37,932 bases of DNA, taken from the NCBI GenBank assembly GCA_018062285.1, contig JAGOSO010000007.1, positions 1-37,932 on the forward strand. Direction: 5' to 3'. Made by a program: the position numbers and the translations under genes. The DNA comes from Minisyncoccota bacterium. Lineage in GTDB: Bacteria > Patescibacteriota > Minisyncoccia > 2-02-FULL-40-12 > GWA2-44-9. This document shows positions 15,517 to 32,084 of the stretch, one piece after another. The notes below the pieces were generated by a model that saw nothing but the letters and a program-made list of their open reading frames with translations, had not been told where the DNA came from and ran no database searches. Numbering within the stretch: the first letter of the stretch is position 1; every line of letters starts with the position of its first letter.

Positions 15517-15720
15517 TTTCTCTCGCTGTTCTCTCCGCCTGTCTCGCAACCTCGAATTCGTCACTGATGCCGAACAAAAAGGCTACCTTGCCGAACTGCT
15601 GTTCGGTTTCCTTTTTGTTACCGGCATAGTTTTCTCATTCTTCGGGCGATAAGACGGCGTCGAGAAGTGCTCAGAAACTAATTAGACCTTCGCTTTTATT
15701 GTTTGTGTTATTAGACAATT
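15517..15720. repeat. Left copy of an approximately 200-bp imperfect inverted repeat (partner 26700-26900); contains a bidirectional terminator hairpin ccgaac-tgct-gttcgg with flanking A/T runs
   Basis: The reverse complement of 26700-26900 aligns. The core 'ccggtaacaaaaaggaaaccgaacagcagttcggcaaggt' matches about 58/59. 'gagacaggc.gagagaacagcgagagaaa' matches 32/33. Flanks differ mostly by transitions. Confidence 0.75.
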
Positions 15721-15730
15721 TGGTCTTCGT

Positions 15731-15958
15731 GTGTTTAAATGTTTGAACATTGGAGGGTTTGTGTCCGAAGAAAAATGTGACGGTATTTGTGACTTGTTGA
15801 GGAAGTTGGGAGAGCAGAGGGGTTGGGATGTGGATACAGCCCATGAGAAAGCTCTGTATACGAAACATGTGCTTGCCCTGCCTTCACTGCGTGACGGTGT
15901 CGAGTATCTGCTGGAGGGCAAGCCTGTCCCGCCGCCGCCCAGCCCCGAAGAGGTCTGA
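15731..15958 (+). CDS. G+C-rich small ORF (75 aa from GTG), unknown; ends 7 nt before terminator 15965-16007
   Basis: No in-frame ATG and a weak RBS. Supported mainly by the downstream terminator and by composition. Overlapping ORFs in other frames exist. Confidence 0.3.
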   Translation: MFKCLNIGGFVSEEKCDGICDLLRKLGEQRGWDVDTAHEKALYTKHVLALPSLRDGVEYLLEGKPVPPPPSPEEV

Positions 15959-15964
15959 ACTTCC

Positions 15965-16007
15965 TGCCCGTGAGCGCACTATCGGTGCCCTCACGGGCAC
16001 TTTTTAT
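15965..16007 (+). terminator. Intrinsic terminator tgcccgtgag-...-ctcacgggca + TTTTT
   Basis: 10-bp stem and T-run. Confidence 0.65.
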
Positions 16008-16029
16008 TACAAAATTAAGACACAAATTG

Positions 16030-16057
16030 CCCCATTTTGTCATCCTTGACAAAATGG
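16030..16057. promoter_or_regulatory. Perfect 12-bp inverted repeat cccattttgtca-tcct-tgacaaaatggg overlapping the -35 of the flotillin promoter; candidate operator
   Basis: Exact palindrome read from the sequence. It overlaps TTGACA at 16046-16051. -10 spacing is ambiguous (TAATAT/TACTCT). Confidence 0.45.
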
Positions 16058-16159
16058 GTATTAATATGCTACTCTATTCACGATTTAGAAATGGATCGCA
16101 CCTGAACAACCTAGGCACCTATGCCACGGGCATTGGCCCAAAAATAGGAGAGAAGACAG

Positions 16160-18457
16160 ATGGAACAAGTGTTGAGTGTGTTGAAGTTGGTCTTGGGCTA
16201 CTGGTGGGTGATTCTCATCATCGCCATGGCTATCGGCTGGAAAGTCAGCATGTATGCATTCGGCATGTTCATCGTGCCGGATGACTCGATCGCTACGTTG
16301 GTCAAGAAGTTCGTACTCCTCGGCGCCAATCGGCAGTTGCCTCCGGGCAAAGTCGTGGCCACCAACGGCGAAGCGGGTATCCAAGCAATCACGCTTGGCC
16401 CCGGTTTCCATTGGGGCTACTGGCCGTGGCAGTACAAGGTCAACATGACCAAGTTCGTGACTGTCGAGCCGGGATTCATCGGTGTCATCGAGTCAATCGA
16501 TGGTGTGCCGTTGCCGGCTGGTCGTGTAATCGGCGTGCCGGTCGAGTGCGACAACTTCCAGGACGCGGTTGCGTTCTTGAAGAACGGCGGTCAGCGTGGA
16601 ACGCAGATGGCCTCCATCCCTCCGGGGAAATGGCGCATCAACAACCTGGTCTTCAAGGTCAGGTCGATTCCCATGACTACCATCGAGCCGGGCCAAATCG
16701 GCATCGTCGAAGCCATCGACGGTGAACCGTTGCCGGCTGGTCGCATCTTGGCTACTCCGGTTGAGTGCGATTCGTTCCAGGACCCGAAGGCCTTCATGGA
16801 CCGCAAGGGCCAGCGTGGTAACCAGATGGCCGTCGTCCCTCCGGGGCAGTGGCGCATCAACACGCAGATGTTCAAGGTCAATCCGTACGCGATGACCATC
16901 ATCGAGTCCAACCAGATCGGCACCGTCGAAGCTCTCGATGGTGACGCGCTGAGCGAGGGTCGCATCATCGGCCGTCAGGTTGAGTGCGATTCGTTCCAGG
17001 ACCCCAAGGCGTTCATGGATGCTGACGGCCAGCGTGGTCCTCAGATGTCCATCATCCCTCCGGGCAAGTACCGGATCAACCCCAAGATCTTCTCTGTCAC
17101 GTCGGTGGACATCATCGACATCCCGCAGGGGAAAGTCGGTATCGTGACGACGAAGGAAGGTACGCCACTCAAGACCGGTGAAATCGCCGGCCCCGAAGTC
17201 GGCGGACATAACTCGTTCCAGGACCCCAAGGCCTTCATCGAAAACGGGGGCAACAAGGGTCTGCAGGAGCAGGTGCTTCTCGCGGGCCGCTACTTCATCA
17301 ATCCTTACTTCGCCAGCGTGGAAGTGAAGGACATGACCGAAGTTCCGATTGCCAACGTCGGCGTCGTCGTTGCCTTCGTCGGCAAAGAAGGCCAGGACGT
17401 TACGGGAGAAGGTTTCCGTCACGGCAATATGGTGCACAAGGGCGAGCGGGGTGTTTGGATCGATGTTCTCGATCCGGGCATGTACCCGATCAACCCCTTC
17501 ACACACAGTGTCAAGTTGGTCCCGACAGCCAACGTCGTTCTGAACTGGGCGACCGGCAAGAACGAATCACACAAGTTGGACGAGAAGCTCTCGACCATCA
17601 CGGTGCGTTCGTCGGACGGATTCACGTTCAACCTGGACGTGAGCCAGATCATCCACATTCCGCGCACTGACGCTCCCAAGGTCATCGCGCGGTTCGGCAG
17701 CATGCAGGCTCTCGTCACGCAGGTTCTGGAACCGACAATCGGGAACTACTTCCGAAACGCGGCTCAGAACTCTGACGCAATCTCGTTCCTCAAAGAACGA
17801 ACTCAGCGTCAGACTGAAGCGAAGACGGCCATCTCGAAGGCTCTTGCCGAGTACAACGTCGGCGCAATCGAGACACTGATCGGCGATATCAATCCGCCGG
17901 AAGCGTTGATGAAGACGCTCACGGATCGGAAGATCGCTGACCAGGAGAAGGTTACCTATCAGACGCAGATGGAAGCTGAGGGTGTTCGTCAGTCGTTGAA
18001 CCAGGCGAGAGCTCTTGCCGATACGCAGAAGGAAGTTGTCGCTGCGGAACGGAAAGTGTCCATTGCCGATTTCGACAAGCAGACCGCCATCAAGAAGGCG
18101 GAAGGCGAAGGCGAAGCTGCGAAGATCAACGCCAGGGCAAATGCCGAGGCGGCTGTTGCGACCGGCGAGGCTCAGGCCAAGGTCACTACGCTCAACGGCG
18201 CGGCCGAAGCAGGAAAGACTCTTGCTGTCGGTAACGCCGAGGCCGAGGTTATCGAAAAGAAGACCAAGGCCATGGATCGTAGCCAGTACGCTGCGGTCGA
18301 AATCGCTCGGGCCTTGGCTGGCTCAGGCAAGCCTTTGGTGCCCGAGATCATGGTCGCTGGTGGTGCCGCCGAAGGCGGTCGAGGAAGTTCTCTCATGGAC
18401 GTCCTCATTGCCCAGATGGTTGCGACGAAGGTCGCTGCCTCAACCGAGAAGAAGTAA
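16160..18457 (+). CDS. G+C-rich flotillin/SPFH (band-7, YqiK-like) membrane protein with four internal ~73-aa tandem repeats and Ala/Glu-rich flotillin C-terminal region
   Basis: N-terminal TM (VLGYWWVILIIAMAIGW). Four repeats contain 'VECD(S/N)FQDPKAF...GQRG.QM...PPG.WRIN' (about 16478-17380). C-terminal EA-rich coiled region 'AEGEGEAAKINARANAEAAVATGEAQAK' is typical of flotillins. Confidence 0.7.
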   Translation: MEQVLSVLKLVLGYWWVILIIAMAIGWKVSMYAFGMFIVPDDSIATLVKKFVLLGANRQLPPGKVVATNGEAGIQAITLGPGFHWGYWPWQYKVNMTKFVTVEPGFIGVIESIDGVPLPAGRVIGVPVECDNFQDAVAFLKNGGQRGTQMASIPPGKWRINNLVFKVRSIPMTTIEPGQIGIVEAIDGEPLPAGRILATPVECDSFQDPKAFMDRKGQRGNQMAVVPPGQWRINTQMFKVNPYAMTIIESNQIGTVEALDGDALSEGRIIGRQVECDSFQDPKAFMDADGQRGPQMSIIPPGKYRINPKIFSVTSVDIIDIPQGKVGIVTTKEGTPLKTGEIAGPEVGGHNSFQDPKAFIENGGNKGLQEQVLLAGRYFINPYFASVEVKDMTEVPIANVGVVVAFVGKEGQDVTGEGFRHGNMVHKGERGVWIDVLDPGMYPINPFTHSVKLVPTANVVLNWATGKNESHKLDEKLSTITVRSSDGFTFNLDVSQIIHIPRTDAPKVIARFGSMQALVTQVLEPTIGNYFRNAAQNSDAISFLKERTQRQTEAKTAISKALAEYNVGAIETLIGDINPPEALMKTLTDRKIADQEKVTYQTQMEAEGVRQSLNQARALADTQKEVVAAERKVSIADFDKQTAIKKAEGEGEAAKINARANAEAAVATGEAQAKVTTLNGAAEAGKTLAVGNAEAEVIEKKTKAMDRSQYAAVEIARALAGSGKPLVPEIMVAGGAAEGGRGSSLMDVLIAQMVATKVAASTEKK

Positions 18458-18477
18458 CATCTCTCTCGGACTACTTA

Positions 18478-18516
18478 CCCGTGGGGTGCGCATGCGCGCT
18501 CCACGGGCTTTTTATT
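18478..18516 (+). terminator. Intrinsic terminator cccgtgg-...-ccacggg + CTTTTTATTT
   Basis: Hairpin and T-run immediately after the stop. Confidence 0.65.
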
Positions 18517-18545
18517 TGACAAAATAGGGTTTAATGATTTATAAT
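18516..18545 (+). promoter_or_regulatory. Consensus promoter TTGACA-N18-TATAAT abutting the preceding terminator
   Basis: ttgacaaaatagggtttaatgatttataat. Confidence 0.5.
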
Positions 18546-18563
18546 ATAAAAGAGGTGACACAC

Positions 18564-19109
18564 ATGGAAGGTCAGTTGGCAGCTATCACAAATCTCGCAG
18601 TAGTTACTCTGTTAATCGCAATCGGGGCGCTTCTCTTGTCTCTGAACAACAGGAGCAGGATCAAGCATCTTGCTACGACTCAGGTTCCTCACCCCCAGGA
18701 GTATCGGGATTATCGCCCGGAACCTCAGGCCCCTGTTTCTCAAACGCTTTCTCAGACTCAGATCAACGATGAGGCACGGCGGCTTATTCGGGAGGCCATC
18801 AGCAGTCTGTTCAGCGGTGTTGACCTGATGAAGTTCCTTCAGGACGGTACGCCGGAACAGCGAAAGGTCATCCTTGATCGGATTCGCGAGAAGCTTCTTG
18901 ATGAGGTCGGCAACACTGTTGATGATGTTTTCGACACTGACAACTCTGACTGGTGCGACGAGTACGAAGCCTTCAGGAAATCTGTCGCTGGCATGATCCC
19001 TGAGATCGTGAAAGAACTCTTCGATGATCCGGAAGGACCTGCCCGAAAGAAAGTTGTCGAGGTTGTCTCCGGGAAGATCACGGAGTATCTCGACGGCGAC
19101 ATGTCGTAG
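18564..19109 (+). CDS. G+C-rich single-pass membrane protein (181 aa), unknown function; downstream neighbour of the flotillin gene
   Basis: The track ORF starts at 18534 inside the -10. ATG 18564 is preceded by AGAGGTGA. TM 'LAAITNLAVVTLLIAIGALLL'. Acidic C-terminus. Confidence 0.5.
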   Translation: MEGQLAAITNLAVVTLLIAIGALLLSLNNRSRIKHLATTQVPHPQEYRDYRPEPQAPVSQTLSQTQINDEARRLIREAISSLFSGVDLMKFLQDGTPEQRKVILDRIREKLLDEVGNTVDDVFDTDNSDWCDEYEAFRKSVAGMIPEIVKELFDDPEGPARKKVVEVVSGKITEYLDGDMS

Positions 19110-19133
19110 TCATCGGTCCCCACCAACACTCGA

Positions 19134-19180
19134 CTGCCTATTGGAAAGAAACATTTCCAGTAGGCAGTTTTTATTTTTTA
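19134..19180 (+). terminator. Long imperfect hairpin (ctgcctattggaaag...atttccagtaggcag) + T-run
   Basis: Read from the sequence. Confidence 0.6.
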
Positions 19181-19318
19181 AACAATATGTTACGTTTTGT
19201 ATGCTAAAAAAGAGTTAAGATTCAATTCGGGACGACCGTCGCAGGCGGGTAGCCGAGGGCAGAGCGGAAAAGTCAGCAGACTTTTAACGCGGGTCGGCGT
19301 GAATTGAACCGAACGAAA

Positions 19319-20578
19319 ATGCCAAGCAAATACTACAAAAAATATATACGCATTCCGCCAGGAGAATCAATCGATCTAAGGCCAATCATGGCGATTATTG
19401 AGCATCCGAGGTTTGAAAGATTAAGGCATGTCTCTCAATTGGGCACGACGTTATTTATATTCCCAGGGGCATCACACAATAGATTTGAGCACGCGTTGGG
19501 TGTTTATAGTAAGGCTAAGCGCTTTTGTGCCAAGATGCTTGAGGAAGGATTCCTGACTAGTTTTGAAGCCAAGAACGTTCCGCTTTTTGGTTTGTTGCAC
19601 GATATTGGTCATGGTCCGTTTTCTCATTTAATTGAAGAGTTAACTCCATTTGACCACGATAAAAATGGGGCAAATATTCTGGAAGAATTAAAAGATGCCA
19701 TCGAAGAATCCGGTGGCGATTTAAAGTTTATTAAATCCTTGTTCGCTCACAAAAATCCACTCTGCAAGATTATCATGGATAAAAATTTGGGGATGGATAA
19801 ACTTGATTATCTTGATCGCGATGTTTATCATACCGGTTTTGGCCATCGTCCTGATTTGGAAAGCGTTTTCAATTACTTACTCTTTATGAAAAAGGGGATG
19901 GTGATTGATAAGAAATCACTTGAATCAGCCAAGCAGATTCAGCGTTTGTATTTGTATATGTATAAAGAAGTGCATTTACATAAATCCTCTTTGATTGCCC
20001 AAAGATTTTTGCAGAAGATGATCATGATTTGGCTCTCAAAGCACGATATTAATCCATTGGAGCTATGGGCGCTAAACGACCAGGAATTAATGGCTAAATT
20101 GTATACTGACCCAGATGAAAGACTAAAGTTTTTGTACACCGCCTATATTCAGAGGAACTTACCAAGTACCGGTTTAGTTTTTCGTATGGATACCAAACAA
20201 TCTAGTGAACGTTTGGCTGGCAAAAAAATTAAAGTCATAGGGGAGAGTCAAGAGTTTTTTGATAAAGTCATTAAACATTCTTCCCCTAAGGGTTTGGAGA
20301 TTTTAGAACAAAAGATAGCTGAATTGATTAAAGTCCCAACTCATATGGTGATTGTTGTGCCAACTATTTCTACGGGTAGATTTGTCCCGCAAGATATTGT
20401 GTATCACGACGAAGGCAAGATCCTGTCTCTAAAAGAAAACCAACCTGAATACTTTAACGGGATGAGTGAAGAGCTTAATGGTTACCTATCTCTAAGAGTT
20501 TCTATTATCGGAGATCGCGATCAGATTTATAAGAACGCTGTTAAAATTCACGAGCTTATCAATAAGCACATCTCCTAG
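19319..20578 (+). CDS. HD-domain phosphohydrolase (dGTPase/SAMHD1-like)
   Basis: 'NRFEHALGV' and 'LLHDIGHGPFSH' HD motifs. The track starts at TTG 19304. The first ATG is 19319. Confidence 0.7.
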   Translation: MPSKYYKKYIRIPPGESIDLRPIMAIIEHPRFERLRHVSQLGTTLFIFPGASHNRFEHALGVYSKAKRFCAKMLEEGFLTSFEAKNVPLFGLLHDIGHGPFSHLIEELTPFDHDKNGANILEELKDAIEESGGDLKFIKSLFAHKNPLCKIIMDKNLGMDKLDYLDRDVYHTGFGHRPDLESVFNYLLFMKKGMVIDKKSLESAKQIQRLYLYMYKEVHLHKSSLIAQRFLQKMIMIWLSKHDINPLELWALNDQELMAKLYTDPDERLKFLYTAYIQRNLPSTGLVFRMDTKQSSERLAGKKIKVIGESQEFFDKVIKHSSPKGLEILEQKIAELIKVPTHMVIVVPTISTGRFVPQDIVYHDEGKILSLKENQPEYFNGMSEELNGYLSLRVSIIGDRDQIYKNAVKIHELINKHIS

Positions 20579-21615
20579 TTTATGTCTGGTCCAATTTCGT
20601 AGCTTTTGAATTCGTAGTCACTAACGATAGATACTTGGTCGGCACTGTATTTTTGGATCAAGTTTGATGCAATTTTGAGTTTCTTTCCGTCGACTATTTT
20701 GTAAACATTTGTATTTCCTTTGTTTGTGATCAGGGTTGTTTCTGGTATAGCAGTAAGTTCTTTTGAAGACATTATTTTTATCTCTGACCACTTATTGCCA
20801 TAAGACAAGAATACGTCTTCGCTTGGGATTAGGTGGCGATACCCGTTATCGTTTATGTAGTAAATATTATTGTTGTCTTTTGCCCTTATGATTCTCGATT
20901 GGTTTTTTAAAGGAGGTGTTGGGGTATCAACTATAGAGGCAAAAGTTTTATCAGATACGGAGTTCTTTTGATTAATAAAGGCAAAAAGATGAAGTCCGGC
21001 ATTGTGGGCTTCTCTTGCTGATGGGGTGCCAATGAAACGGAAGTGCCATGGTTCAAAAATGTAGCCAGTATTTGTTTCTTGGCCCTTGGGGTAACTCATC
21101 ATGAACCCATATTCAAAAGAATGTTCAGCCAACCATTTGCCCTCAGCACTATCAGCAAACTTTTCTTTTAAGTTTACAGATTGTTCACCAGATCCAAAAT
21201 CTATTGTTGTGCCTAGTTGGTGCTCTGAGTGGCCAGCCTCGGCCGAGTAGCTATTTGCGTTTTTGTCTTTACTAAAATATCTGCTGAATAAGTTTTTTTG
21301 GGCTGTGTAACTTCGATAGGCCGAAACTATTTTTAGATCTAGACCTTGTTTTTTTGAGTCACTGAATAGTCTTTTTAGATCTTGGTAGGCAATAGCTCTT
21401 ATGTATTGGCCCTTGAATCCCAAATCAGAAAGCTCCACTAAATCAGAGGGTGCATAATGCTCAACAGTGTTCTGTTTGTTGATGAGGTTCAGGAGATCGT
21501 CTGCGTTTGTTATTAGTATTGCGAAGAGATTTCCGCCTCCAGTGTAGAAAGATGCGCCAATAAATATTCCGGCCAAAATTATGCCAGAAGAAACGAGTAG
21601 AGTTGATTTTTTCAT
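20575..21615 (-). CDS. Membrane-anchored D-alanyl-D-alanine carboxypeptidase, peptidase M15 (VanY-like)
   Basis: 'SAEAGHSEHQLGTTIDF' zinc-ligand motif and an N-terminal TM. Confidence 0.65.
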   Translation of the reverse strand: MKKSTLLVSSGIILAGIFIGASFYTGGGNLFAILITNADDLLNLINKQNTVEHYAPSDLVELSDLGFKGQYIRAIAYQDLKRLFSDSKKQGLDLKIVSAYRSYTAQKNLFSRYFSKDKNANSYSAEAGHSEHQLGTTIDFGSGEQSVNLKEKFADSAEGKWLAEHSFEYGFMMSYPKGQETNTGYIFEPWHFRFIGTPSAREAHNAGLHLFAFINQKNSVSDKTFASIVDTPTPPLKNQSRIIRAKDNNNIYYINDNGYRHLIPSEDVFLSYGNKWSEIKIMSSKELTAIPETTLITNKGNTNVYKIVDGKKLKIASNLIQKYSADQVSIVSDYEFKSYEIGPDIN

Positions 21616-21663
21616 TGCACGAACAAGAGTGTTCCTGTTGATGATGGCGTGACTGAATAGATG

Positions 21664-21736
21664 TGCGCTCGATAGGATTCGAACCTATGACCGTCTCCTT
21701 AAAAGGGAGCTGCTCTACCAACTGAGCTACGAGCGC
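21664..21736 (-). tRNA. tRNA-Lys (anticodon UUU)
   Basis: The reverse complement folds as a cloverleaf: acceptor gcgctcg/cgagcgc, D-arm gctc-agttggtag-gagc, anticodon loop cTTTTaa, T-arm atagg-ttcgaat-cctat. No encoded CCA. Confidence 0.8.
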
Positions 21737-21838
21737 ATGTTACGTCCAAAATCATAACATAAAAAATCTTACTCAGCAACAAGGAATACCCCATAATTAT
21801 CCGCTTGTTTGGTCGGATTTTTGTGTTATTATACGGAT

Positions 21839-23230
21839 ATGAAACGAACTTCTATTGCAGATATTAAAGATTTAGTTGGTGAGACAGTCGACTTGGCTGG
21901 TTGGATTCATATCCGTCGCGACCACGGCAAGCTTATATTTATTGATATCCGTGATCGTAGTGGTGTGGCCCAAGTTGTTTTCACACCAGGCAATAAAGAA
22001 ATTCATGAACTCGCTAGTCAGTTGCGCTCCGAATGGGTTGTTCGCATCAAGGGCAAGGTTAATGCCCGCCCCGAAAAAATGGTTAACCCAGAGATCCCAA
22101 CTGGTAAAGTTGAGATTGAGCCAGTTGAATTAGAAATTTTAAACAAGGCCGAAACCCCTCCATTCCCAATCGACACTGATGGCAAAGAGATCGGCGAAGA
22201 ACACCGCATGAAGTATCGCTATTTGGATTTGCGTCGTTCTCGCATGGCCAAGAACATGTCTGTTCGTCATCGCTTGATTAAGTTTATCCGTGATTACTTA
22301 GATGATAATGGATTCTACGAAATCGAGACTCCTATTTTGACCAAGTCTACTCCAGAGGGTGCTCGTGACTACGTTGTGCCATCTCGTTTATATAATGGTA
22401 AGTTTTTTGCTTTGCCTCAATCTCCTCAGCAATACAAACAATTATTGATGGTCGGTGGTATCGAAAAATATTTCCAGATTGCTCGTTGTTTCCGAGACGA
22501 AGACACTCGCGGTGATCGTCAGCCAGAATTTACTCAGCTCGATTTAGAAATGAGTTTTGTTGAACGTGAAGACGTAATGCAGATCAATGAAGACCTGCTT
22601 ATTAAGTTGGTCCAAAAACTAGCTCCAGAAAAAAAGATCCAAGAGATTCCTTTCCCAAGAATTTCATACAAGGATGCCATGGAAAAATATGGCAATGACC
22701 GCCCTGATTTAAGAACTGACAAAAACGATCCAAACCTTTTGGCTTTTTGCTGGGTCATTGATTTCCCATTCTTCGAAAAGACCGAAGATGGAGGTTGGAC
22801 TTTCACTCATAACCCATTCTCGGCCCCTAAACCAGAATTCATGGCCGACCTTTTGGCCGGACAAAACATTGAATCAATCTTAACTAGTCAGTACGACATT
22901 GCTTTGAATGGTTCAGAGATTGGTGGTGGTAGTATTCGTAACCATACAGCCGAGAGTTTGCGCTCAGTCTTTAAGATTATGGGCTTTGAAGATAAAAGAA
23001 TCGACGAAAACTTTGGCCACATGTTGCAGGCGTTCTCTTTTGGTGCCCCACCACACGGCGGTATCGCTTGGGGTTTGGATCGTTTAATCACCATCCTTAC
23101 GAACGAACCAAATATCCGCGAGGTAATTGCTTTCCCTAAGACTGGGGATGCTCGTGACTTAATGATGGAATCTCCATCCGAGCTTGAGCCAAAACAGTTA
23201 CGGGAACTTCATCTTAAAATAGAAAAATAA
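21839..23230 (+). CDS. aspS: Aspartate--tRNA ligase (short form lacking the GAD insertion)
   Basis: 'FRDEDTRGDRQPEFTQLDLEMSF' motif 2 and 'GGGSIRNH'/'GLDRL' motif 3 region. First ATG after the track start. Confidence 0.85.
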   Translation: MKRTSIADIKDLVGETVDLAGWIHIRRDHGKLIFIDIRDRSGVAQVVFTPGNKEIHELASQLRSEWVVRIKGKVNARPEKMVNPEIPTGKVEIEPVELEILNKAETPPFPIDTDGKEIGEEHRMKYRYLDLRRSRMAKNMSVRHRLIKFIRDYLDDNGFYEIETPILTKSTPEGARDYVVPSRLYNGKFFALPQSPQQYKQLLMVGGIEKYFQIARCFRDEDTRGDRQPEFTQLDLEMSFVEREDVMQINEDLLIKLVQKLAPEKKIQEIPFPRISYKDAMEKYGNDRPDLRTDKNDPNLLAFCWVIDFPFFEKTEDGGWTFTHNPFSAPKPEFMADLLAGQNIESILTSQYDIALNGSEIGGGSIRNHTAESLRSVFKIMGFEDKRIDENFGHMLQAFSFGAPPHGGIAWGLDRLITILTNEPNIREVIAFPKTGDARDLMMESPSELEPKQLRELHLKIEK

Positions 23231-24157
23231 ATGGACCGAAAAATAGAAGGACTGACAATTGTCGTCGCTATTTTGGTGTTGGCAAACGCCTATTTTTTTA
23301 TCACCATTTATCGTAACCCAGAAGACTCTCTGAAAATAATGGGCAAAAATGAACAAGCTTTTATTCTTCCGCCTAACCCAGTCAGCTATCTTCCCATAAG
23401 GGACACATCCGCTCAGGAGGTTAATTTAGACGCCAAGTCGGCAATTTTGTACGATGTTAAATCCGACCGTAATTTATTTGAAAAAAATATTAAAGATAAG
23501 TTACCGATTGCTTCTTTGACCAAGGTTTTAAACGCCGTTGTCGTTTGGGAGAAGTTTAGCCCTAATGATTTGGTTAGGGTTGGAGCCTCGGCTGTTAAGG
23601 TGGACGGAGAGAGAAAGGATCTTTTTGTTAATGAAACAATATCCGTTCATAATTTAATGCAGATGATGTTGATCGAGTCTTCTAATGATGCGGCCTATGC
23701 TTTGAGGGATTTTGCCGCTAGCCGTAGTATTGATTTGGTTGCTGAGATGAACAAGAAGGCATCAGAATTGGGAATGAACAGTACTCATTTTGTAGACCCA
23801 GCGGGGCTTGATGATACTGGGTATTCAACTGTCAGTGACTTGGTGAAAGGTGTGGTGTATGCTTTGCGTTACGATGCTATCTGGAGTTTCTCTAGACAAT
23901 CTAGCGCCACAATTGTTTCTGCTGACGGCAAAATAACTAGAGAAATTAAAAGTACCGACCAGCTTTTAGGTGTTTTGTCAGATATTGTCGGTGGAAAAAC
24001 TGGGTATACAGATAGTGCTCTTGGGTGTATGATTTTAATTGTAGACGCACCCAATCAAAGCGATAGTATTATCGCCATAGTGCTTGGTTCTCATGACAGG
24101 TTTGGAGATATGAAGAACCTTGTTTCGTGGGCCAAGACAGCTTATCGCTGGAACTAG
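23231..24157 (+). CDS. dacA: Serine-type D-Ala-D-Ala carboxypeptidase (peptidase S11, PBP5/6-like)
   Basis: SxxK 'ASLTKVL', SxN 'ESSND' and KTG 'GGKTGYT'. Confidence 0.75.
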   Translation: MDRKIEGLTIVVAILVLANAYFFITIYRNPEDSLKIMGKNEQAFILPPNPVSYLPIRDTSAQEVNLDAKSAILYDVKSDRNLFEKNIKDKLPIASLTKVLNAVVVWEKFSPNDLVRVGASAVKVDGERKDLFVNETISVHNLMQMMLIESSNDAAYALRDFAASRSIDLVAEMNKKASELGMNSTHFVDPAGLDDTGYSTVSDLVKGVVYALRYDAIWSFSRQSSATIVSADGKITREIKSTDQLLGVLSDIVGGKTGYTDSALGCMILIVDAPNQSDSIIAIVLGSHDRFGDMKNLVSWAKTAYRWN

Positions 24158-24181
24158 TATTATAATTAGAATTAAAAATAA

Positions 24182-25249
24182 ATGACTACACCTCCGCTAG
24201 AAGCACTAAATATATTTAATGTTGTTCGTTTGTTTGTCGTTGCTACAACGGCTTTCTTTTTAAACTTAATAATTACACATTTTTGGACTAAGGTTTTATT
24301 TACTCGTTTTAAACCTGGCAAAGCCATCGAAAGACCAGATACGCCAATTTTTAATAGTTTACATCGCAAGAAAGAAGGTACCCCAACTATGGGCGGTTTG
24401 CCAATTTGGTTAACTGTTGCAGTTATTACTCTGGGGTGCTGGTTTATGGCTAATACTTTCGACGGTATCTGGAGTCGTATTAGTTTTTTGTCCCGTGGTC
24501 AGACTCTGTTGCCTTTAGGGTTTTTAATTCTCGCTGGTCTAGTCGGTATGATTGATGACATGGTTGGTGTTTTAAAACGTGGAGGTTTGCGCATGATGAA
24601 ACGCTTGTTGTTTTTCTTAATCGTTGCTGCCATTGGCGCTTGGTGGTTTTATTTCAAATTGGATATTCGCACCATCGTCGTCCCATTCTTTGGTGAATAC
24701 TCAATCGGTTGGTTGTATATTCCGTACTTCATGTTCATCATGACCGCTGTGGCCCACTCTATGAATCTTACCGATGGTCTAGACGGTTTGTCTGGTGGGG
24801 TTTTCTTAACAATCTTTGGGGCTCTTACTGCTATCGCTTTTGATCAGGGCCGCTTGGATCTCGCCATTTTCATGAGTGCAATCATGGGCGCTTTAATTGC
24901 TTTTCTTTGGTTTAATATTTATCCCGCCAAGTTTTTCATGGGGGATACTGGGGTAATGGCTCTCGGGTTCACTGTTGGCGTTGTTGCTTTATTGACTAAC
25001 ACTGAATTGCTTTTGCCGATTATCGCTATCGTGCCGCTGATGGAATCTGGTTCCGTTATTCTTCAAACTATTTCTAAAAAATTCCGCGGCAAAAAGATAT
25101 TTCCTTCCACCCCAATTCACCACACCTTCGAAGCTATGGGTTGGCCCGAAACCCAAATCACCATGCGTTTCTGGGTCATCAACGCCATTGGCGCAATTGT
25201 TGGCCTCGTCTTGTTCTTGATCGACAGTAAGTTGCCTCCGTTCAAATAA
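24182..25249 (+). CDS. mraY: Phospho-N-acetylmuramoyl-pentapeptide transferase MraY
   Basis: 'HRKKEGTPTMGG' and the polytopic profile. Confidence 0.85.
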   Translation: MTTPPLEALNIFNVVRLFVVATTAFFLNLIITHFWTKVLFTRFKPGKAIERPDTPIFNSLHRKKEGTPTMGGLPIWLTVAVITLGCWFMANTFDGIWSRISFLSRGQTLLPLGFLILAGLVGMIDDMVGVLKRGGLRMMKRLLFFLIVAAIGAWWFYFKLDIRTIVVPFFGEYSIGWLYIPYFMFIMTAVAHSMNLTDGLDGLSGGVFLTIFGALTAIAFDQGRLDLAIFMSAIMGALIAFLWFNIYPAKFFMGDTGVMALGFTVGVVALLTNTELLLPIIAIVPLMESGSVILQTISKKFRGKKIFPSTPIHHTFEAMGWPETQITMRFWVINAIGAIVGLVLFLIDSKLPPFK

Positions 25250-25278
25250 TCTATATTTAGAGCATATGTTCTTGAAAA

Positions 25279-25294
25279 TAGGCCCATTAGGGCC
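25279..25294. promoter_or_regulatory. Perfect palindrome aggccc-atta-gggcct immediately upstream of the cassette promoter (mraY terminator and/or operator)
   Basis: Read from the sequence. Confidence 0.4.
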
Positions 25295-25295
25295 T

Positions 25296-25325
25296 ATTGA
25301 CTTTTGGGTATAAAATATGGTATAA
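25296..25325 (+). promoter_or_regulatory. Promoter TTGACT-N18-TGgTATAAT (extended -10)
   Basis: ttgacttttgggtataaaatatggtataat. Paralogous to the promoter at 26036. Confidence 0.55.
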
Positions 25326-25401
25326 TTAAGGTACTCTCGTGAGTATAACTTGCGAGTGTTCGTTCACAACATTCAAAGCCTATAAGGCGGAGGATAGACA
25401 T

Positions 25402-25953
25402 ATGAAATGGAATAAGTTCAAGGCGCTTCTTGATTCGAATTACTGGCTTCAGTTTCATATCGGCCCACCCGCGCTTCAGTCGTTGAGGCTCAACGTGCCG
25501 GCGAAGGAGGCTGAGCGTGGACTCAAGGATTACGTTCGGACACGGCTCGATTACATCGCGTTCCGTCCGTTCGAGCAGCTTGACCTTCAGGTTTGTGACA
25601 CGGACGAGAGTGTTGTCGTGCCAAATCCGAAGTACCGCAACATCAAGTTCACGGAAGGAACATCGACTCAGTACGTGATTCGTTTCCATATCGAGGGCGT
25701 GGAATATCCGTTCCATCGTGTTCGATACGTTTATGATCACGGCTCAATCGCTGCTGCCATCAAACATCTCGTGAAGTGGCACGGCGAAACTTCGTGGGGA
25801 GGTCCGAGAGGGCGCGCGTTGAAAATCGACGCCGTCGTTAAGGTTAGCTCTTACTACCACGAAGTTAGCCAGGTCGGGATGCAGCACATCGAGGCCTACG
25901 AGTTCCCCAAAGATTTCGATCTCAAGAAGTTCGAGGGAGAAGTCGCGGCCTAG
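25402..25953 (+). CDS. G+C-rich protein of unknown function (183 aa)
   Basis: The track starts at GTG 25339. ATG 25402 follows GGCGGAGGA. Ends at the terminator module. Confidence 0.5.
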   Translation: MKWNKFKALLDSNYWLQFHIGPPALQSLRLNVPAKEAERGLKDYVRTRLDYIAFRPFEQLDLQVCDTDESVVVPNPKYRNIKFTEGTSTQYVIRFHIEGVEYPFHRVRYVYDHGSIAAAIKHLVKWHGETSWGGPRGRALKIDAVVKVSSYYHEVSQVGMQHIEAYEFPKDFDLKKFEGEVAA

Positions 25954-25956
25954 CAC

Positions 25957-26012
25957 GCCCGTCACACGAAAGGTCCGCCATGCGCGACCCGTGTGGCGGG
26001 CCTTTTAAATTT
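25957..26012 (+). terminator. Terminator module gcccgtcacacg...cgtgtggcgggc + CTTTTAAATTT (copy 1 of a ~70-bp direct repeat)
   Basis: 25951-26020 is about 93% identical to 26624-26693. Confidence 0.65.
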
Positions 26013-26035
26013 AAAAATGTTCAAAAATATCCTAT

Positions 26036-26063
26036 TGACTTTTAAGTAAAAACATAGTATAAT
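26036..26063 (+). promoter_or_regulatory. Promoter TTGACT-N16-TATAAT (paralogue of 25296-25325; shared 'cctattgactttt')
   Basis: Read from the sequence. Confidence 0.5.
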
Positions 26064-26131
26064 TATAAAACAGAGATTAGATAGGTTTTTAAAAATTCAA
26101 CCGCGCCTAAGGGGCGCAGAAAGTAGGAAGT

Positions 26132-26626
26132 ATGGGATTCCCGGTTTGGAAGACTGTCGTTCTCGGTCTGGTTAAGTCCCAGAAGAACTATCGAATGGCC
26201 CTCCGAAAAGCTGGTTACGAAATTAGCGGTTGGGGCGAGAAGGTTCTCAAGAGGACCACGGTCTCTCCGGTGGAACTCGAATTGGATCTCGTCGCCGTGA
26301 CGGTCGAAGAGCTTGGTCTTGAGATTGGCGCGCATCGGGATGTCGCTTGCGCCAAAGCATTGGAGCTTGGTCTCCAGCTTTGCCCAGCGGAAGTTGGTCC
26401 CGCTCTGAGGCTCCTCTACAGGGATCAGCCGCGTGGCGAACTGCTCCGCATAGGTATGCGAGCGGTCGCTTATTCGGCCGGGCGTAAGCTAACGTTCGGT
26501 CTTAACCACAGTGACTTCCGTGGACAAGAACTAAACGGATTTGGTGGCCAAGCACTCGACGGCTATATTGTTGCCGCTCGAGTAGTCTCTCGTATCTGTT
26601 GGGTCTTTGTTCGTCCTCGTAAGTAG
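26132..26626 (+). CDS. G+C-rich protein of unknown function (164 aa)
   Basis: ATG 26132. Leader hairpin gcgcc-taag-gggcgc. Terminator module copy 2 follows. Confidence 0.45.
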   Translation: MGFPVWKTVVLGLVKSQKNYRMALRKAGYEISGWGEKVLKRTTVSPVELELDLVAVTVEELGLEIGAHRDVACAKALELGLQLCPAEVGPALRLLYRDQPRGELLRIGMRAVAYSAGRKLTFGLNHSDFRGQELNGFGGQALDGYIVAARVVSRICWVFVRPRK

Positions 26627-26629
26627 CAC

Positions 26630-26690
26630 GCCCGTCACACGAAAGGCCGCCACGCGCGACCCGTGTGGCGGGCCTTTTAAATTTAAAAAA
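26630..26690 (+). terminator. Terminator module copy 2
   Basis: See 25957-26012. Confidence 0.65.
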
Positions 26691-26699
26691 TAATTCTTC

Positions 26700-26900
26700 A
26701 TTTAATAAAAACAAAAATAGCGAAGCGCTCACTATTTTCGAGCGTTTCTCGACGCCGTATTCTCGTCCGAAAATTTATGGAATTCTTCCGGTAACAAAAA
26801 GGAAACCGAACAGCAGTTCGGCAAGGTGGCCTTTTTGTTCGGAAGTAATGAATAAATTGAAGTTACGAGACAGGCAGAGAGAACAGCGAGAGAAATAGTG
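26700..26900. repeat. Right copy of the ~200-bp inverted repeat (partner 15517-15720)
   Basis: See the left copy. Confidence 0.75.
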
Positions 26901-26930
26901 AGGGCGCAGCGAACCTGCTATAATAAGGAT

Positions 26931-28004
26931 ATGCGGAAACGGCTTTTTTGGATACTGACAATTTTGATAATCGCGGGGCTGGCCATTTTATCTTCGGCTG
27001 GAATTGTGGATGCGCAGAAGAAATTTGGGTCAGCCTATTATTATTTCTTTCACCAGCTTTTATATGGCATAGCGCCAGGGATTTTGTTGGCGTATATCCT
27101 TTCAAGGATTGATTTTAAAATCTGGCGCAAATTTTCTTTGCCAATTTTGTTGGTGGCCTTAGGTTTGATGACTTTAGTATTTGTTTCTCACTTCGGTTTT
27201 GGGGCTAAGGGGGCGACTCGTTGGTTGAGTATTGGAGGGATTGTTTTCCAGCCAGCTGAAATTTTAAAGCTATCTTTGGTTATATATTTTGCAGCTTGGT
27301 TTGGTGGTCGACATGAACGCACAAGTCATTGGCTCTATGGTGCAGCACCATTCTTTATCGTTTTGGGATTCGCCGGTTTGTTGTTGGCTTTGCAGCCAGA
27401 CATTGGAACTTTGCTGGTTGTTGGGTCCATTGCTTTGATAATGTACTTTGTGGCTGGGGCAAATATGAAACTCCTTGGGTCTATTGTCGTCATTGGTTTG
27501 ATCGGATTGGTTTTGCTGATTAGGTTTGAGCCATATCGCTTTAATCGTATCCGTTCTTTTATTGACCCTAATGCCGACGTTCGAGGAATTTCTTATCAAG
27601 TTAACCAGGCCAAAATTGCCATTGGCTCTGGTGGTGTTTTTGGTGTTGGCTTTGGGCATAGTACTCAAAAATTTGGCTTCTTGCCTGAGCCAGTTGGAGA
27701 CTCTATTTTTGCAATTGTGGTTGAGGAGCTAGGTTTAGTCGGGGGAATGGTTATTGTCGGATTGTTTGTGGCCTTATGCTTTACGTTGATGCAAATTGCG
27801 ATAGCCACGACCGATTCCTTTGGACGCTTATTTGTAAGCGGAATCAATATATGGATAATGGTTCAAGCGTTTATTAACATCGCCGCTATCTCTGGCCTCG
27901 CCCCGCTAACTGGTATCCCGCTACCATTTATTAGTTATGGTGGGACAGCCATCATCGCTCTTCTGGCCGGCTTGGGGATTGTATTTAATGTCGCCAATGA
28001 CTAA
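26931..28004 (+). CDS. ftsW: SEDS-family peptidoglycan glycosyltransferase FtsW/RodA
   Basis: Polytopic. 'ISYGGTAIIA' C-terminal SEDS motif. The track starts at GTG 26898, inside the inverted repeat. First ATG is 26931. Confidence 0.75.
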   Translation: MRKRLFWILTILIIAGLAILSSAGIVDAQKKFGSAYYYFFHQLLYGIAPGILLAYILSRIDFKIWRKFSLPILLVALGLMTLVFVSHFGFGAKGATRWLSIGGIVFQPAEILKLSLVIYFAAWFGGRHERTSHWLYGAAPFFIVLGFAGLLLALQPDIGTLLVVGSIALIMYFVAGANMKLLGSIVVIGLIGLVLLIRFEPYRFNRIRSFIDPNADVRGISYQVNQAKIAIGSGGVFGVGFGHSTQKFGFLPEPVGDSIFAIVVEELGLVGGMVIVGLFVALCFTLMQIAIATTDSFGRLFVSGINIWIMVQAFINIAAISGLAPLTGIPLPFISYGGTAIIALLAGLGIVFNVAND

Positions 28005-32071: not shown

Positions 32072-32084
32072 TTGTGTTCCTGTC

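Follow-up and report, generated by a model that had tools for sequence, protein, structure and literature searches.

The inverted repeat pair and the genes around it

The window is the whole stretch of DNA that was analyzed, 37,932 nt of a Minisyncoccota contig (JAGOSO010000007.1). It contains a gene for a TraD/VirD4-like coupling protein and, farther on, ftsW, with two inverted repeat copies between them (Table 1). The repeats bracket genes for an HD protein, VanY, tRNA-Lys(UUU), a class-II D/K/N aminoacyl-tRNA synthetase (AspRS-like), a PBP/S11 peptidase, and MraY, and an earlier sequence-only reading was correct in placing the synthetase, MraY, and tRNA-Lys in this interval. It was also right that G+C-rich stretches lie beside the inner ends of the copies (50–61% at 15501–19000 and 50–55% at 25501–26500, vs. 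~40% elsewhere). The cassette-like genes of the window are bounded by other, short terminator hairpins.

Table 1. Positions in the window of the two repeat copies, their parts, and the neighboring genes
Feature	Positions	Strand	Remarks
TraD/VirD4-like coupling-protein gene	13867..15516	+	
Left repeat copy	15501..15700	+	nhmmer E 1.6e-54; "top" strand (TTTCTCTCGCTG...) on +
Terminal helix 5' half (GCTCCG motif) and closing stem GGTCTAACTAGTTTCT, left copy	15501..15521	+	
Most conserved block of the family, TTTCTCTCGCTGTTCTCTCCGCCTGTCTCG, left copy	15517..15546	+	pairs with 15645–15677
Helix AACAAAAAGG/CCTTTTTGTT, left copy	15573..15619	+	encloses conserved unpaired CTACCTT and apical hairpin
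Bracketed core block	19304..25249	+	HD, VanY (−), tRNA-Lys (−), AspRS-like, PBP, MraY
Right repeat copy	26706..26912	−	nhmmer E 1.5e-60; "top" strand on −
Helix and apical hairpin (26822–26805), right copy	26791..26837	−	identical to left copy over 40 nt
Conserved block, right copy	26866..26895	−	as left block except for one C>T change
ftsW	26931..28004	+	probable ATG start; ORF opens at GTG 26898

The inverted repeat is genuine. By blastn, 15517–15710 matches the reverse complement of 26703–26895 (194 nt, 81.4% identity, E 1.2e-49), and a repeat search returns ungapped arms at 15517–15677 and 26735–26895 (161 nt, 83% complementary). The identity of 81–83% is lower than the ~85% first reported, and the mismatches, which had been described as mostly transitions, divide into 18 transitions and 18 transversions over 15517–15710. 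The longest block common to both arms is a 57-nt core with one mismatch. The 40 identical nt, in the region of the helix and apical hairpin, suggest gene conversion or a recent common origin; the arms have probably exchanged sequence by gene conversion, without inversion of the block. Logan contigs of the window organism end inside this 40-nt core, as expected of a repeat. There are two copies in the window and no third, by blastn and, in agreement, by nhmmer with the family profile.

The left arm was said to begin directly after the TraD-like stop codon, and indeed the stop occupies 15514–15516 and the blastn arm starts at 15517. However, comparison across the family places the true start of the element ~16 nt earlier, at ~15501 inside the TraD ORF, so that the final codons of that gene and its stop codon lie within the first ~16 nt of the element. 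The hairpin extends to 15693 and is followed by a T-run at 15694–15697. The segment 15501–15521, which includes TraD codons R-S-N and the stop codon, pairs with 15673–15693 (AGAAACTAATTAGACC plus TTCGC). The TraD-like C terminus (...EEALRSN*) is element-derived, whereas element-free relatives end in ...EEALKK*, and between copies the 3' partner of the closing stem follows the TraD C-terminal codons (GGTTCTAAATAG/CTATTTAGAACC, CGGTCTAACTAG/CTAATTAGACC, GGCAGGAAGTAG/CCACTTCTAGCC). Farther up the rod, the helix AACAAAAAGG/CCTTTTTGTT covaries in relatives as AACAAATAGG/CCTATTTGTT, and the apical hairpin (GCCGAAC-TGCT-GTTCGGT at 15590–15607) is swapped for other hairpins.

In the right copy, the hairpin spans 26720–26912 and its minus-strand T-run lies at 26717–26706. 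The 5' end of its top strand adjoins the extended −10 box of ftsW (TGCTATAAT, 26916–26924), directly beyond the copy, and the ATG. This end (~26912) had been placed within the annotated upstream region of ftsW; it does fall inside the ORF opened by the GTG, but it stops 19 nt short of the likelier ATG start.

A dispersed family of hairpin elements

Both arms belong to a dispersed family of ~205–250-nt imperfect palindromes. Although the window holds only its two copies, more than 20 occur at ~12 different gene boundaries in related metagenomic genomes. A 23-mer of the element matched 19 metagenome loci, including three on one 371-kb contig and two on one 157-kb contig, and no long autonomous version is present among these 19 matches. 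It should be noted that most members were recovered through this exact 23-mer, which inflates the apparent sequence conservation; copies in L033 and L036 diverge far more. Further divergent copies were located through neighboring genes in L012, L033 (two), L035 (two), and L036 (three). The density observed is two to three copies per 20–370 kb of contig. The distribution of the family is confined to one clade of Paceibacteria (Yanofskybacteria-like Patescibacteria). Because the element is multicopy, the bracketing is coincidental, as one suggestion of the sequence-only reading (a MITE- or terminator-like dispersed element) had implied, with the qualification that the same inverted pair of sites recurs in a second species (L035).

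Orthologous copies occupy the TraD site in L012, L020, L024, L033, and L035 and the ftsW site in L019/L035 and L036. Copies at the ftsW site are 85% identical, compared to ~74% for the flanking genes, and thus conservation of the element exceeds that of neighboring coding DNA. The body of the element is noncoding (reading frames are disrupted by indels), and internal hairpin insertions and mini-derivatives occur. No Rfam 15 model matched the two window copies (E ≤ 10) or five further copies (E ≤ 1), and we found neither viral matches for the family nor literature on it.

Position at gene ends, gain, and loss

At eight of the 11 sites of known context, the gene immediately upstream has the top strand as its coding strand, and the element starts at the stop codon of that gene and ends with a T-run. 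The stop codons that abut or overlap the start belong to genes for TraD-like, UvrB, RF-1/2, Lon, KhpB/R3H, Wzy_C-TPR, and RNase_H_2-like proteins and to one unknown gene. The other three sites (ftsW, VTT/subtilase, and beside tRNA-Lys in L036) have the reverse orientation. TAA or TAG lies directly 5' of the element at at least six sites, and in the TraD-like and RNase_H_2-like genes the closing stem supplies the last three to six codons plus the stop codon.

Elements are gained, lost, and decaying at given sites. TraD alleles with and without the element interleave on the tree, empty TraD sites carry an ordinary terminator in its place, and decayed remnants are present in L021, L034, and L036. 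At the UvrB site, the element is lodged between the stop codon and the original terminator, and comparison of filled and empty sites fits insertion into the TA of the stop codon. No clear target duplication, conserved terminal inverted repeat, or cognate transposase was found for the family.

Fold, covariation, and strand asymmetry

The family folds as a rod of ~55 conserved pairs that comprises, from the base outward, a terminal helix (GCTCGG/CCTCGC), a closing stem that varies between copies yet is always complementary, conserved inner helices, and a replaceable apical hairpin. RNAalifold gives 45–56 pairs, 20–23 of them with compensatory changes. In a pair count over 14 copies, 96.1% of cells are paired, vs. 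86.9% in shuffles and ~45% with slid partners, 23 pairs carry compensatory changes, and none of 500 shuffles reaches the observed value on any of five measures. The divergent L033 and L036 copies show compensation also in helices that do not vary in the main set. The element is under strong selection for one long rod-like hairpin.

The two strands are not equivalent. In single-sequence folds of all 16 copies, the complementary (bottom) strand is 8–28 kcal/mol more stable than the co-transcribed one, and the advantage is equal whatever the local gene direction. The consensus fold gives −50.0 kcal/mol and 56 pairs for the bottom strand, vs. −37.5 kcal/mol and 45 pairs. The bottom strand has invariant U.G pairs along with alternations of C-G and U.G: U58.G271 never varies, and position 45–283 is U.G in 11 copies and C-G in three. 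Overall, G.U outnumbers A.C by ~50:7, or by 27:12 once two fixed wobble positions are removed. The bottom strand also has a tandem G.A in the conserved terminal helix (GCGAGG/CCGAGC) and GAA/GA internal loops repeated one helical turn apart. On the co-transcribed strand, the terminal helix instead carries a tandem U.C mismatch just ahead of the T-run, which is poor terminator geometry.

Alternative explanations

Two of the earlier suggestions concern the block as a unit. Terminal inverted repeats of a composite transposon or genomic island carrying the interior, including the G+C-rich cassettes, would account for inverted repeats around a block with both edges compositionally foreign. We reject this reading, and its probability is negligible, because the interior is core genome with the same synteny where the repeat is absent (L010, L011, L034) and where it is present (L033, L035, L036), and no transposase or recombinase domain was found among the 20 window ORFs scanned. 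Variable genes fill the TraD–HD and MraY–FtsW gaps in repeat-free genomes as well (L010, L011), and the repeat is found alone at many unrelated sites. The 11.4 kb between the copies are ordinary ancestral chromosome, outside the element. It is very improbable, too, that the pair flips this block, whether as a programmed switch or by recurrent RecA-mediated inversion. An inverted pair with a 40-nt identical core would permit it, and the second species also has an inverted pair at these two insertion sites (L035 = L019/L020). The order TraD-like, HD, AspRS, PBP, MraY, FtsW is, however, found in a single orientation in all seven related Paceibacteria/Yanofskybacteria-like lineages examined, no invertase or integrase gene lies nearby, the arms are only 81% identical overall, and inversion would set the essential AspRS-like and MraY genes against the replication-aligned strand bias. 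The sole hint comes from elsewhere: in the short contig L029, the left flank of one copy is fused to the right flank of an inverted copy located 34 kb from it (100%/99.6% identity), as expected of inversion between inverted copies. Either a 34-kb inversion or a chimeric assembly could explain this contig; given that two independent long assemblies of that organism (Ga0082335_1000049, L035) have the standard junction, L029 may be a chimera at a 165-nt repeat.

Other explanations concern the element itself. A purely selfish, nonautonomous element that moves via single-stranded DNA (IS200/IS605-PATE-like or similar) or via cDNA, with the strand-specific hairpin as transposition substrate and incidental effects on host transcripts, would fit the dispersed copies with their gains, losses, and decay, the orientation-biased insertion beside stop codons (including the UvrB comparison), and a fold preference indifferent to transcription direction. 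We nevertheless consider it improbable. Neither the window nor the annotated flanks of L010–L013 and L033–L036 showed an HUH, DDE, or other transposase, and none of the pattern matches is a long autonomous version. Terminal stems vary between copies, although transposase-bound ends are normally conserved, and the cross-species orthologs, compensatory evolution, and conservation above coding DNA point to host-level selection. Judging from GC skew, the better-folding strand would be on the leading-strand template at most sites, which is opposite to the behavior of IS608-type elements. Less easily set aside, but still unlikely, is that the copies are paralogous genes for a stand-alone, rod-shaped ~210-nt small RNA from the bottom strand (convergently with TraD from the minus strand at the left copy, and from the plus strand at the right copy, a short way upstream of ftsW), which could serve as a protein-binding scaffold or sponge. 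The stop codon would then adjoin the 3' end of the RNA through genome compactness only, and the T-run would serve the convergent gene. The energies, wobble pairs, G.A mismatches, and GAA/GA loops described above all favor that strand, an asymmetry independent of host gene direction, and conservation above coding DNA also speaks for such an RNA. Against this, the bottom strand lacks a promoter at any fixed upstream distance and has just an A-run without the −7 T, unlike nearby protein genes with textbook TTGACA-17-TATAAT promoters; L020 leaves just 12 nt between the element and the −35 box of the next, divergent gene; and no U-run follows the bottom-strand hairpin. Moreover, ~12 different sites with presence/absence and decay in close relatives suggest a dispersed repeat rather than stable RNA loci. 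Internal hairpin insertions and mini-derivatives occur, and no Rfam family matches.

Relation to known repeats and structured RNAs

Published lists of bacterial repeats include ERIC/IRU (enterobacterial repetitive intergenic consensus, ~127-bp imperfect palindromes classed as MITEs), RPEs (Rickettsia palindromic elements, ~105–146 bp), and SPRITEs, which resemble Rho-independent terminators (PMC3184786). As in SPRITEs and intrinsic terminators, a hairpin and then a T-run come right after the stop codon here, in place of the ordinary terminator, but the hairpin is ~90 bp with conserved internal loops, far above terminator size, on the transcribed strand the solid stem is set apart from the T-run by a tandem mismatch plus 6 nt, and three sites are reverse-oriented. 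The likeness to ERIC is broader: 100–250-bp imperfect palindromes, intergenic and co-transcribed, often at gene 3' ends and in either orientation, with high cross-species conservation, variable internal insertions, and an RNA hairpin able to affect the upstream mRNA. These ERIC properties come from PMC3184786 and from general background (Hulton 1991; Wilson & Sharp 2006). The element here is nevertheless longer, unrelated in sequence, and from another phylum; its terminal stems vary but stay complementary, without demonstrated TA...TA flanks or conserved TIRs; its fold is stronger on the strand opposite the usual transcript; and its copy number is apparently low (a few per genome fragment). 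RPEs are also palindromic repeats of a reduced-genome bacterium that can overlap coding sequence. They typically sit in frame inside genes and are translated, whereas here only the extreme 3' end of a gene is involved and the body of the element is noncoding.

Correia/NEMIS, RUP, and classical MITEs are likewise short, nonautonomous fold-back repeats at gene boundaries with polymorphic presence. Unlike the present family, for which none of these was demonstrated, classical MITEs show conserved TIRs, duplication of the target site (TA for Correia and ERIC), and a recognizable parent IS. The rod-like RNAs of Rfam (6S, SRP RNA) share the ~200-nt length, extended hairpin, and purine-rich internal loops, but the element loci are dispersed and polymorphic, with no 6S central bubble and neither the conserved GNRA apex nor the domain-IV motif of SRP RNA. 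Integron attC sites are imperfect palindromes with strand-specific folding and adjoin variable "cassette" genes, as here. However, attC sites conserve structure rather than sequence, measure 57–141 nt, bound every cassette, and need the IntI integrase, whereas this element conserves sequence, occurs as single copies beside housekeeping genes, and has no integrase in the scanned ORFs.

A possible role at transcript ends

We think it probable that the arms are oppositely oriented, paralogous copies of a dispersed hairpin repeat that acts as single-stranded nucleic acid, most likely RNA, and that their bracketing of essential genes is incidental, a by-product of two independent insertion sites. 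The prevailing top-strand orientation, the start at a stop codon, and the T-run suggest that the element would replace the ordinary terminator of the upstream gene and be transcribed as the 3' tail of that mRNA. The hairpin would there end or protect the transcript, as with ERIC, SPRITE, and RPE-type repeats. We give this role at transcript ends a little below an even chance. Against it stand the stabler fold of the complementary strand in every copy, the U.C mismatch ahead of the T-run, and the three sites that face the other way. Because the complementary strand folds systematically better, selection may really act on what is made from it, be it an antisense RNA, a stand-alone RNA, or a single-stranded DNA intermediate for spread. 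The ~210-base hairpin repeat was previously undescribed, and we regard it as a new ERIC/RPE-like interspersed repeat of these Paceibacteria.

The inverted pair and its surroundings

The inverted repeat reported in the window is real: a repeat search returned ungapped arms of 161 nt that are 83% complementary, and blastn gave a longer match of 194 nt (81.4% identity, E 1.2e-49) with no third copy found within the window. The sequence-only reading had put the identity of the arms at ~85% and had described their mismatches as dominated by C-T and G-A transitions; the measured identity is 81-83%, and we counted 18 transitions and 18 transversions. When aligned with MAFFT, the arms have a 57-nt central block with one mismatch, and the flanks are more variable. 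The left arm begins directly past the stop codon of a TraD/VirD4-like gene (549 aa; DUF87, TrwB_AAD_bind, and TraG-D_C domains), the right arm terminates adjoining ftsW, and the sequence flanking the inner end of each arm is G+C-rich, reaching 50-61% on the left (15.5-19.0 kb) and 50-55% on the right (25.5-26.5 kb) against ~40% for the genome. Both arms are non-coding. They have in common an apical hairpin that is lacking from their positional orthologues, as would be expected if the arms had undergone gene conversion or had arisen recently from one another in the window genome.

A dispersed family of copies

The search for further copies that had been recommended revealed a multicopy family, with >20 copies in related metagenomic sequences at ~12 different gene boundaries. 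A 23-mer from the best-conserved block, CGCTGTTCTCTCYGCCTGTCTCG, occurs at 19 metagenome loci (a 371-kb contig has three of them and a 157-kb contig has two), and no long autonomous version was found among these 19 matches. More divergent copies were reached through neighbouring genes in contigs and loci fetched from related genomes, which are labeled here with L numbers (L012/L013; L033 and L035, with two each; and L036, with three); L036 holds 3 copies within 6 kb. Family searches used an nhmmer profile. Viral contigs contain no match for either conserved block. A 21-mer from the core, CCGAACTGCTGTTCGGTTTCC, gave 5 matches in GTDB species genomes, from which the source species is apparently absent; they fall in unrelated phyla, are limited to 21-22 nt, and were dismissed as chance. 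An 84-aa spurious ORF that spans the repeat was also rejected as a means of counting copies, with just 2 protein-database matches. Logan (short-read) contigs of the window organism end inside a 40-nt stretch common to both arms, as expected because the arms are a repeat.

Sites occupied by the repeat
Site	Copies	Remarks
3' end of TraD-like gene	window left, L012, L020/L035, L024, L033	decayed in L021, L034, L036
MraY-FtsW gap, adjoining ftsW start	window right, L019/L035, L036	inverted relative to TraD copy
Gene 3' ends		UvrB, release factor, Lon, KhpB/R3H, Wzy_C-TPR, RNase_H_2-like, unknown 205-aa protein
VTT/DedA-like to subtilase interval		one repeat site
tRNA-Lys neighbourhood	L036	one repeat site; divergent copy directly adjoins tRNA-Lys(UUU)

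A second species (L035) has the same inverted pair of TraD-site and ftsW-site copies, 7 kb apart, and each of these two sites is also found filled singly. Fragments resembling the first ~12 nt of the repeat (GGTCGCTCGAC; AGCGAGGCCAT, inverted) sit 10-20 nt past full copies in L022 and L023, which suggests nested or abortive insertions. In the MraY-FtsW gap of the lineage represented by L035 and the 371-kb contig (Ga0082335_1000049), an unrelated palindrome of ~130 nt (CACTTGGGGTATACTCTTA ... TAAGAGTATACCCCCAAGTG) lies beside the repeat, and this lineage seems to harbour several intergenic palindrome families.

The bracketed block is ancestral chromosome

Two of the earlier proposals took the arms to be the functional ends of the 11.4-kb block between them, either as terminal inverted repeats of a composite element or as sites for its recombinational inversion. 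We compared gene order in contigs encoding close TraD-like homologues (74-86% identity). In these relatives, a single strand carries genes for SecD, SecF, sigma-70, DUF8128, and the TraD-like protein, then a variable gap, HD (in some cases accompanied by VanY and tRNA-Lys), AspRS-like, PBP, and MraY, then a second variable gap, FtsW, S20, and UvrB. The order and orientation from TraD-like to FtsW are kept in L010, L011, L033, L034, L035, and L036. The repeat was not found by nhmmer in L010, L011, and L034, yet order and orientation are unchanged there, and they are likewise kept in the repeat-bearing L033, L035, and L036. A Pfam scan of 20 window ORFs found no transposase, integrase, recombinase, or invertase domain. 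The interior is thus syntenic without the repeat, and no transposase domain was found in the scanned ORFs; a composite element bounded by the arms is not supported. The block is ancestral chromosome, and the essential genes between the arms do not belong to a unit that moves or inverts.

Inversion is likewise not supported: short-read assemblies of seven lineages show the block in a single orientation, and the 20 scanned window ORFs include no site-specific recombinase gene recognised by Pfam. A junction of the kind that inversion would produce does occur elsewhere in the family. In L029, the left flank of the VTT/subtilase-site copy is followed by the repeat and then by HD...MraY, with 100% identity to the left flank of that copy in L031; on the other side, the match is to sequence of the same organism that lies to the right of its inverted TraD-site copy (L020, on to L019; 99.6-100% identity). 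Such a junction is predicted if the 34 kb between the inverted copies flipped. L029 is either such an inversion or an assembly chimera; it may be the latter, because the standard junction is present in two independent long assemblies of the organism (the 371-kb contig and L035) and the repeat they share is ~165 nt. Nothing like this junction was seen for the 11.4-kb block of the window.

A conserved rod with compensatory changes

In the family alignment, the unit is ~205-250 nt. Its top strand (the forward strand for the left window copy and the reverse strand for the right) reads (T)CGCTCGG, a closing stem of 12-17 nt, TTTCTCTCGCTGTTCTCTCCGCCTGTCTCG, ATTGCTTCCGAACAAAWAGGCCACCT, and a variable apical hairpin, and continues on the 3' side with TCCTWTTTGTTACCGGAAGAAT, TTCGGACGAGAAGACGGCGTCG, GCTCRGAAA, the closing-stem complement, CC(T)TCGCT, and a T-run. 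The whole folds as one long rod, for which RNAalifold gives 45 pairs when the top strand is folded and 56 when the bottom strand is, with compensatory double changes in 20-23 of them. In an explicit count over 14 distinct copies, 96.1% of 769 cells were paired, double changes affected 23 of 55 pairs, and the covariation score was 0.319. Shuffling of columns gave 86.9% paired and a score of 0.137 (0 of 500 shuffles matched the observed values on any measure), and sliding the 3' side by 1-3 columns gave ~45% paired and scores of 0.04-0.07. The repeat has a conserved structure, with compensatory substitutions beyond the shuffle controls.

The closing stem differs at each site (e.g., GGCCATTGTATTCTT, GGTTCTAAATAGTTTCT, AGCCTATTATATTTCT), complementarity alone being kept, and conserved end sequence is limited to a short GCTCGG/CCTCGC terminal motif. 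At the TraD site, the 5' half of the stem consists of the last codons of the gene plus its stop, and the 3' half tracks the coding changes (GGTTCTAAATAG / CTATTTAGAACC in alleles ending GSK-stop, CGGTCTAACTAG / CTAATTAGACC in those ending RSN-stop, and GGCAGGAAGTAG / CCACTTCTAGCC in those ending GRK-stop). The apical hairpin is replaced by unrelated hairpins among copies, and L019 and L026 carry extra hairpins, inserted at two points of the interior. The divergent L033 and L036 copies are altered on both sides of helices that are invariant in the main set; examples are a change of CCGCC/GGCG to CCACC/GGTG and, in L036, a 15-bp helix, CATGCCGAGATTTTG/CAAAATCTCGGCATG. A top-strand peptide (MPN..CCSVSFLLP) and a bottom-strand peptide (MFGSNE..RQAERTARE, with AAGGTGG upstream) looked conserved, and coding was considered and rejected; a stop codon interrupts these small ORFs in the right window copy, and frameshifts or insertions disrupt them in L020, L031, and L019.

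Transcription and strand asymmetry

The top strand is the coding strand of the directly upstream gene at 8 of the 11 sites with known context, and at those 8 sites the repeat starts at or over the stop codon of that gene. Given this position, the mRNA of the upstream gene would carry the top strand as its tail. In ~11 of 15 copies, the hairpin is followed by four or more T; on the top strand, the 6 nt directly ahead of this T-run belong to a helix that contains a tandem U.C mismatch. Where the TraD site is filled, no other terminator was found ahead of the next promoter. The simplest role for the hairpin in an mRNA 3' tail would be that of a terminator or 3' stabiliser, a transcript-end role that is known for ERIC, SPRITE, and similar repeats (PMC3184786).

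The bottom strand folds more stably, by 8-28 kcal/mol in 16 of 16 copies, and this advantage is equal in copies co-oriented with and opposed to their neighbour genes. It has one invariant U.G pair and one pair that alternates between U.G and C-G, and its G.U and A.C cells stand at 50:7 (27:12 without the two fixed positions). The conserved terminal helix GCGAGG/CCGAGC contains a tandem G.A, the counterpart of the destabilising tandem U.C of the top strand, and two GAA/GA loops lie one helical turn apart. No consistent sigma-70-like promoter and no U-run or terminator was recognised on the bottom strand. The bottom-strand fold set against these absent signals is a paradox, for which the possibilities include a stand-alone or antisense RNA, an ssDNA or cDNA intermediate, or dual use of the strands. 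We think it unlikely, on present indications, that the repeat is an unrecognised structured ncRNA of Patescibacteria with a defined cellular role, a ~210-nt rod made from the strand opposite the neighbour gene and kept as a few paralogous, partly mobile copies per genome, not a passive repeat. Such a rod would be characterized by the invariant G.U pairs, the tandem-G.A terminal helix, and the periodically spaced GAA/GA loops, and its role might be, for example, that of a protein-sequestering or defence-related RNA.

Gain, loss, and decay

Copies are gained, lost, and decaying at their sites. The ancestral TraD C-terminus is ...EEALKK-stop, and repeat-bearing alleles end GSK-stop, RSN-stop, or GRK-stop; in a neighbour-joining tree, repeat-bearing and repeat-free alleles interleave in one clade. 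The empty TraD site of L010 has an ordinary terminator directly 3' of the stop codon, and what is left at the TraD sites of L034 and L021 is 5' remnants or a copy with an internal deletion. We considered whether the repeat had entered the loop of an existing terminator; this is not supported, as the TraD terminators of L010 and L034 bear no relation to the closing stem. The UvrB site retains its original bidirectional terminator, with the repeat placed between this and the stop codon, and filled and empty versions have junctions compatible with insertion at the TA of the stop, in which case the insert has ~45 extra nt. The same comparison at the TraD site gave no clean target duplication. Orthologous ftsW-site copies are 85% identical, versus ~74% nucleotide identity in the flanking coding DNA.

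Past the GSK-stop of TraD in L036 there is a mini-hairpin with the family terminal motif (ACGCTCGG...CCTCGCTTAG), a 17-bp closing stem, and no interior; the locus also has a scaffold gap with duplicated flanks. The mini-hairpin is either a deletion derivative or a clue to the origin of the family.

What class of element

The third earlier proposal, a MITE-like terminator, came closest. The repeat is multicopy and dispersed, and like a MITE it is short, non-coding, and interspersed (its small bottom-strand ORF is not kept in frame), but its closing stems are not conserved between copies as terminal inverted repeats. By form, with no sequence homology claimed, it resembles ERIC-type repeats in being an imperfect palindrome of transcribed intergenic DNA that occurs in either orientation and across species; these are defined as 100-250-bp imperfect palindromes, transcribed, intergenic, in either orientation, and conserved across species (PMC3184786). 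It may also act as an intrinsic terminator or SPRITE-like element: the T-run and the co-orientation with upstream genes would fit such a role, but the tandem U.C mismatch just ahead of the T-run would not. Integron attC sites differ in that copies of the repeat are single and beside housekeeping genes, whereas the cassettes of the window are bounded by other short hairpins; no integrase was found in the 20 scanned window ORFs (Pfam). A DGR variable/template pair was rejected, the body being non-coding, the transitions and transversions being even (18 each) with no adenine bias noted, and no RT having been found among the 20 scanned window ORFs. Analogies to retrons, DGRs, bridge RNAs, omega-RNAs, and attC sites were set aside as there is no linked RT, recombinase, or nuclease gene.

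In Rfam 15, tRNA-Lys alone reached the gathering score in the window, models (6S, SRP, tmRNA, RNase P, HEARO, and others) did not overlap either window copy at E<=10, and five other copies had no overlap at E<=1. We found no Rfam description of the repeat and no relevant literature on MITEs, palindromic repeats, or structured RNAs of Patescibacteria/CPR. The repeat is a new, lineage-specific bacterial interspersed hairpin repeat, and the conservation of its structure is unusually strong.

Other features of the window

Three G+C-rich islands were noted. In the second lie a 191-aa ORF and the gene for a 765-aa SPFH/Band_7 protein, whose coding sequence includes 219-nt tandem repeats; the ORFs of the first and third have no Pfam match. 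A Band_7 gene likewise occupies the TraD-HD gap of L010; the small genes of this gap and of the MraY-FtsW gap differ from relative to relative, whether or not the repeat is present. Between HD and AspRS, the strand of the tRNA-Lys(UUU) gene varies among relatives. Two cassette-like units share both ends, a promoter-like CCTATTGACT...TATAAT at the start and a 67-nt sequence at the finish that comprises a stop codon, a G+C-rich hairpin, and TTTT, and a Logan contig (L003) breaks at the first cassette hairpin. Further on is an array of four repeats of ~60-97 nt, each with a GGCCCGC...GCGGGCC hairpin, a T-run, and then TTGACA; they are spaced by 273, 274, and 529 nt and resemble mini-cassettes made up of a terminator, a promoter, and a small ORF. 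Only ~6 nt ahead of the ftsW ATG lies a conserved extended -10 box (TGCTATAAT or TGCTACAAT), a sequence arrangement that suggests a leaderless or near-leaderless mRNA, and the annotated GTG start is probably too early. A reverse-strand ORF of ~70 aa lies between secA and the ribosome hibernation factor gene, where the sequence is locally G+C-rich. A supposed mini-derivative, from a poorly designed pattern scan that missed known copies, is a small reverse-strand ORF, not the repeat.

Coordinates of features in the window and in related contigs
Feature	Sequence	Positions	Remarks
Ungapped arms	window	15517-15677 / 26735-26895
Longer arm match	window	15517-15710 / 26895-26703
TraD-like stop codon	window	15514-15516
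Contig with alternative junction	L029	1-12691
G+C-rich islands	window	6376-7533; 15731-19109; 25339-26626	50-61% G+C; genome ~40%
Tandem coding repeats	window	16538-17194	second island
tRNA-Lys(UUU)	window	21663-21736 (-)
tRNA-Lys(UUU)	L034	12979-13052 (-)
tRNA-Lys(UUU)	L033	10380-10453 (+)
67-nt cassette ends	window	25951-26017; 26624-26689
Promoter-like cassette starts	window	25293-25326; 26031-26063
Array of four repeats	window	31788-32969
ftsW extended -10 region	window	26916-26933
ftsW extended -10 region	L033	15885-15908
ftsW extended -10 region	L034	16853-16874
Annotated ftsW GTG start	window	26898
~70-aa ORF	window	2440-2660 (-)
Rejected mini-derivative	window	2472
Repeat-like fragment	L022	2310-2355
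Repeat-like fragment	L023	5365-5400
Unrelated palindrome	L019	720-870
Mini-hairpin past TraD	L036	9199-9420

Implications

The original inverted-repeat hypothesis had an ordinary outcome, and it is the repeat itself that deserves attention. In practical terms, it breaks short-read assemblies, can give rise to chimeric or truly rearranged contigs (as in L029), and is easily mistaken for transposon ends, as in the sequence-only reading. Patescibacteria have tiny, tightly packed genomes; to our knowledge, almost nothing is known about their non-coding elements, and we know of very few classical mobile elements in these genomes. The repeat supplies stop codons to housekeeping genes, and it is unlikely to be junk because it is conserved better than the neighbouring protein genes. 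As a structured RNA of Patescibacteria that has yet to be described it is a credible candidate, and it is also a candidate for a lineage-specific RNA-level function or a new mode of genome spread.
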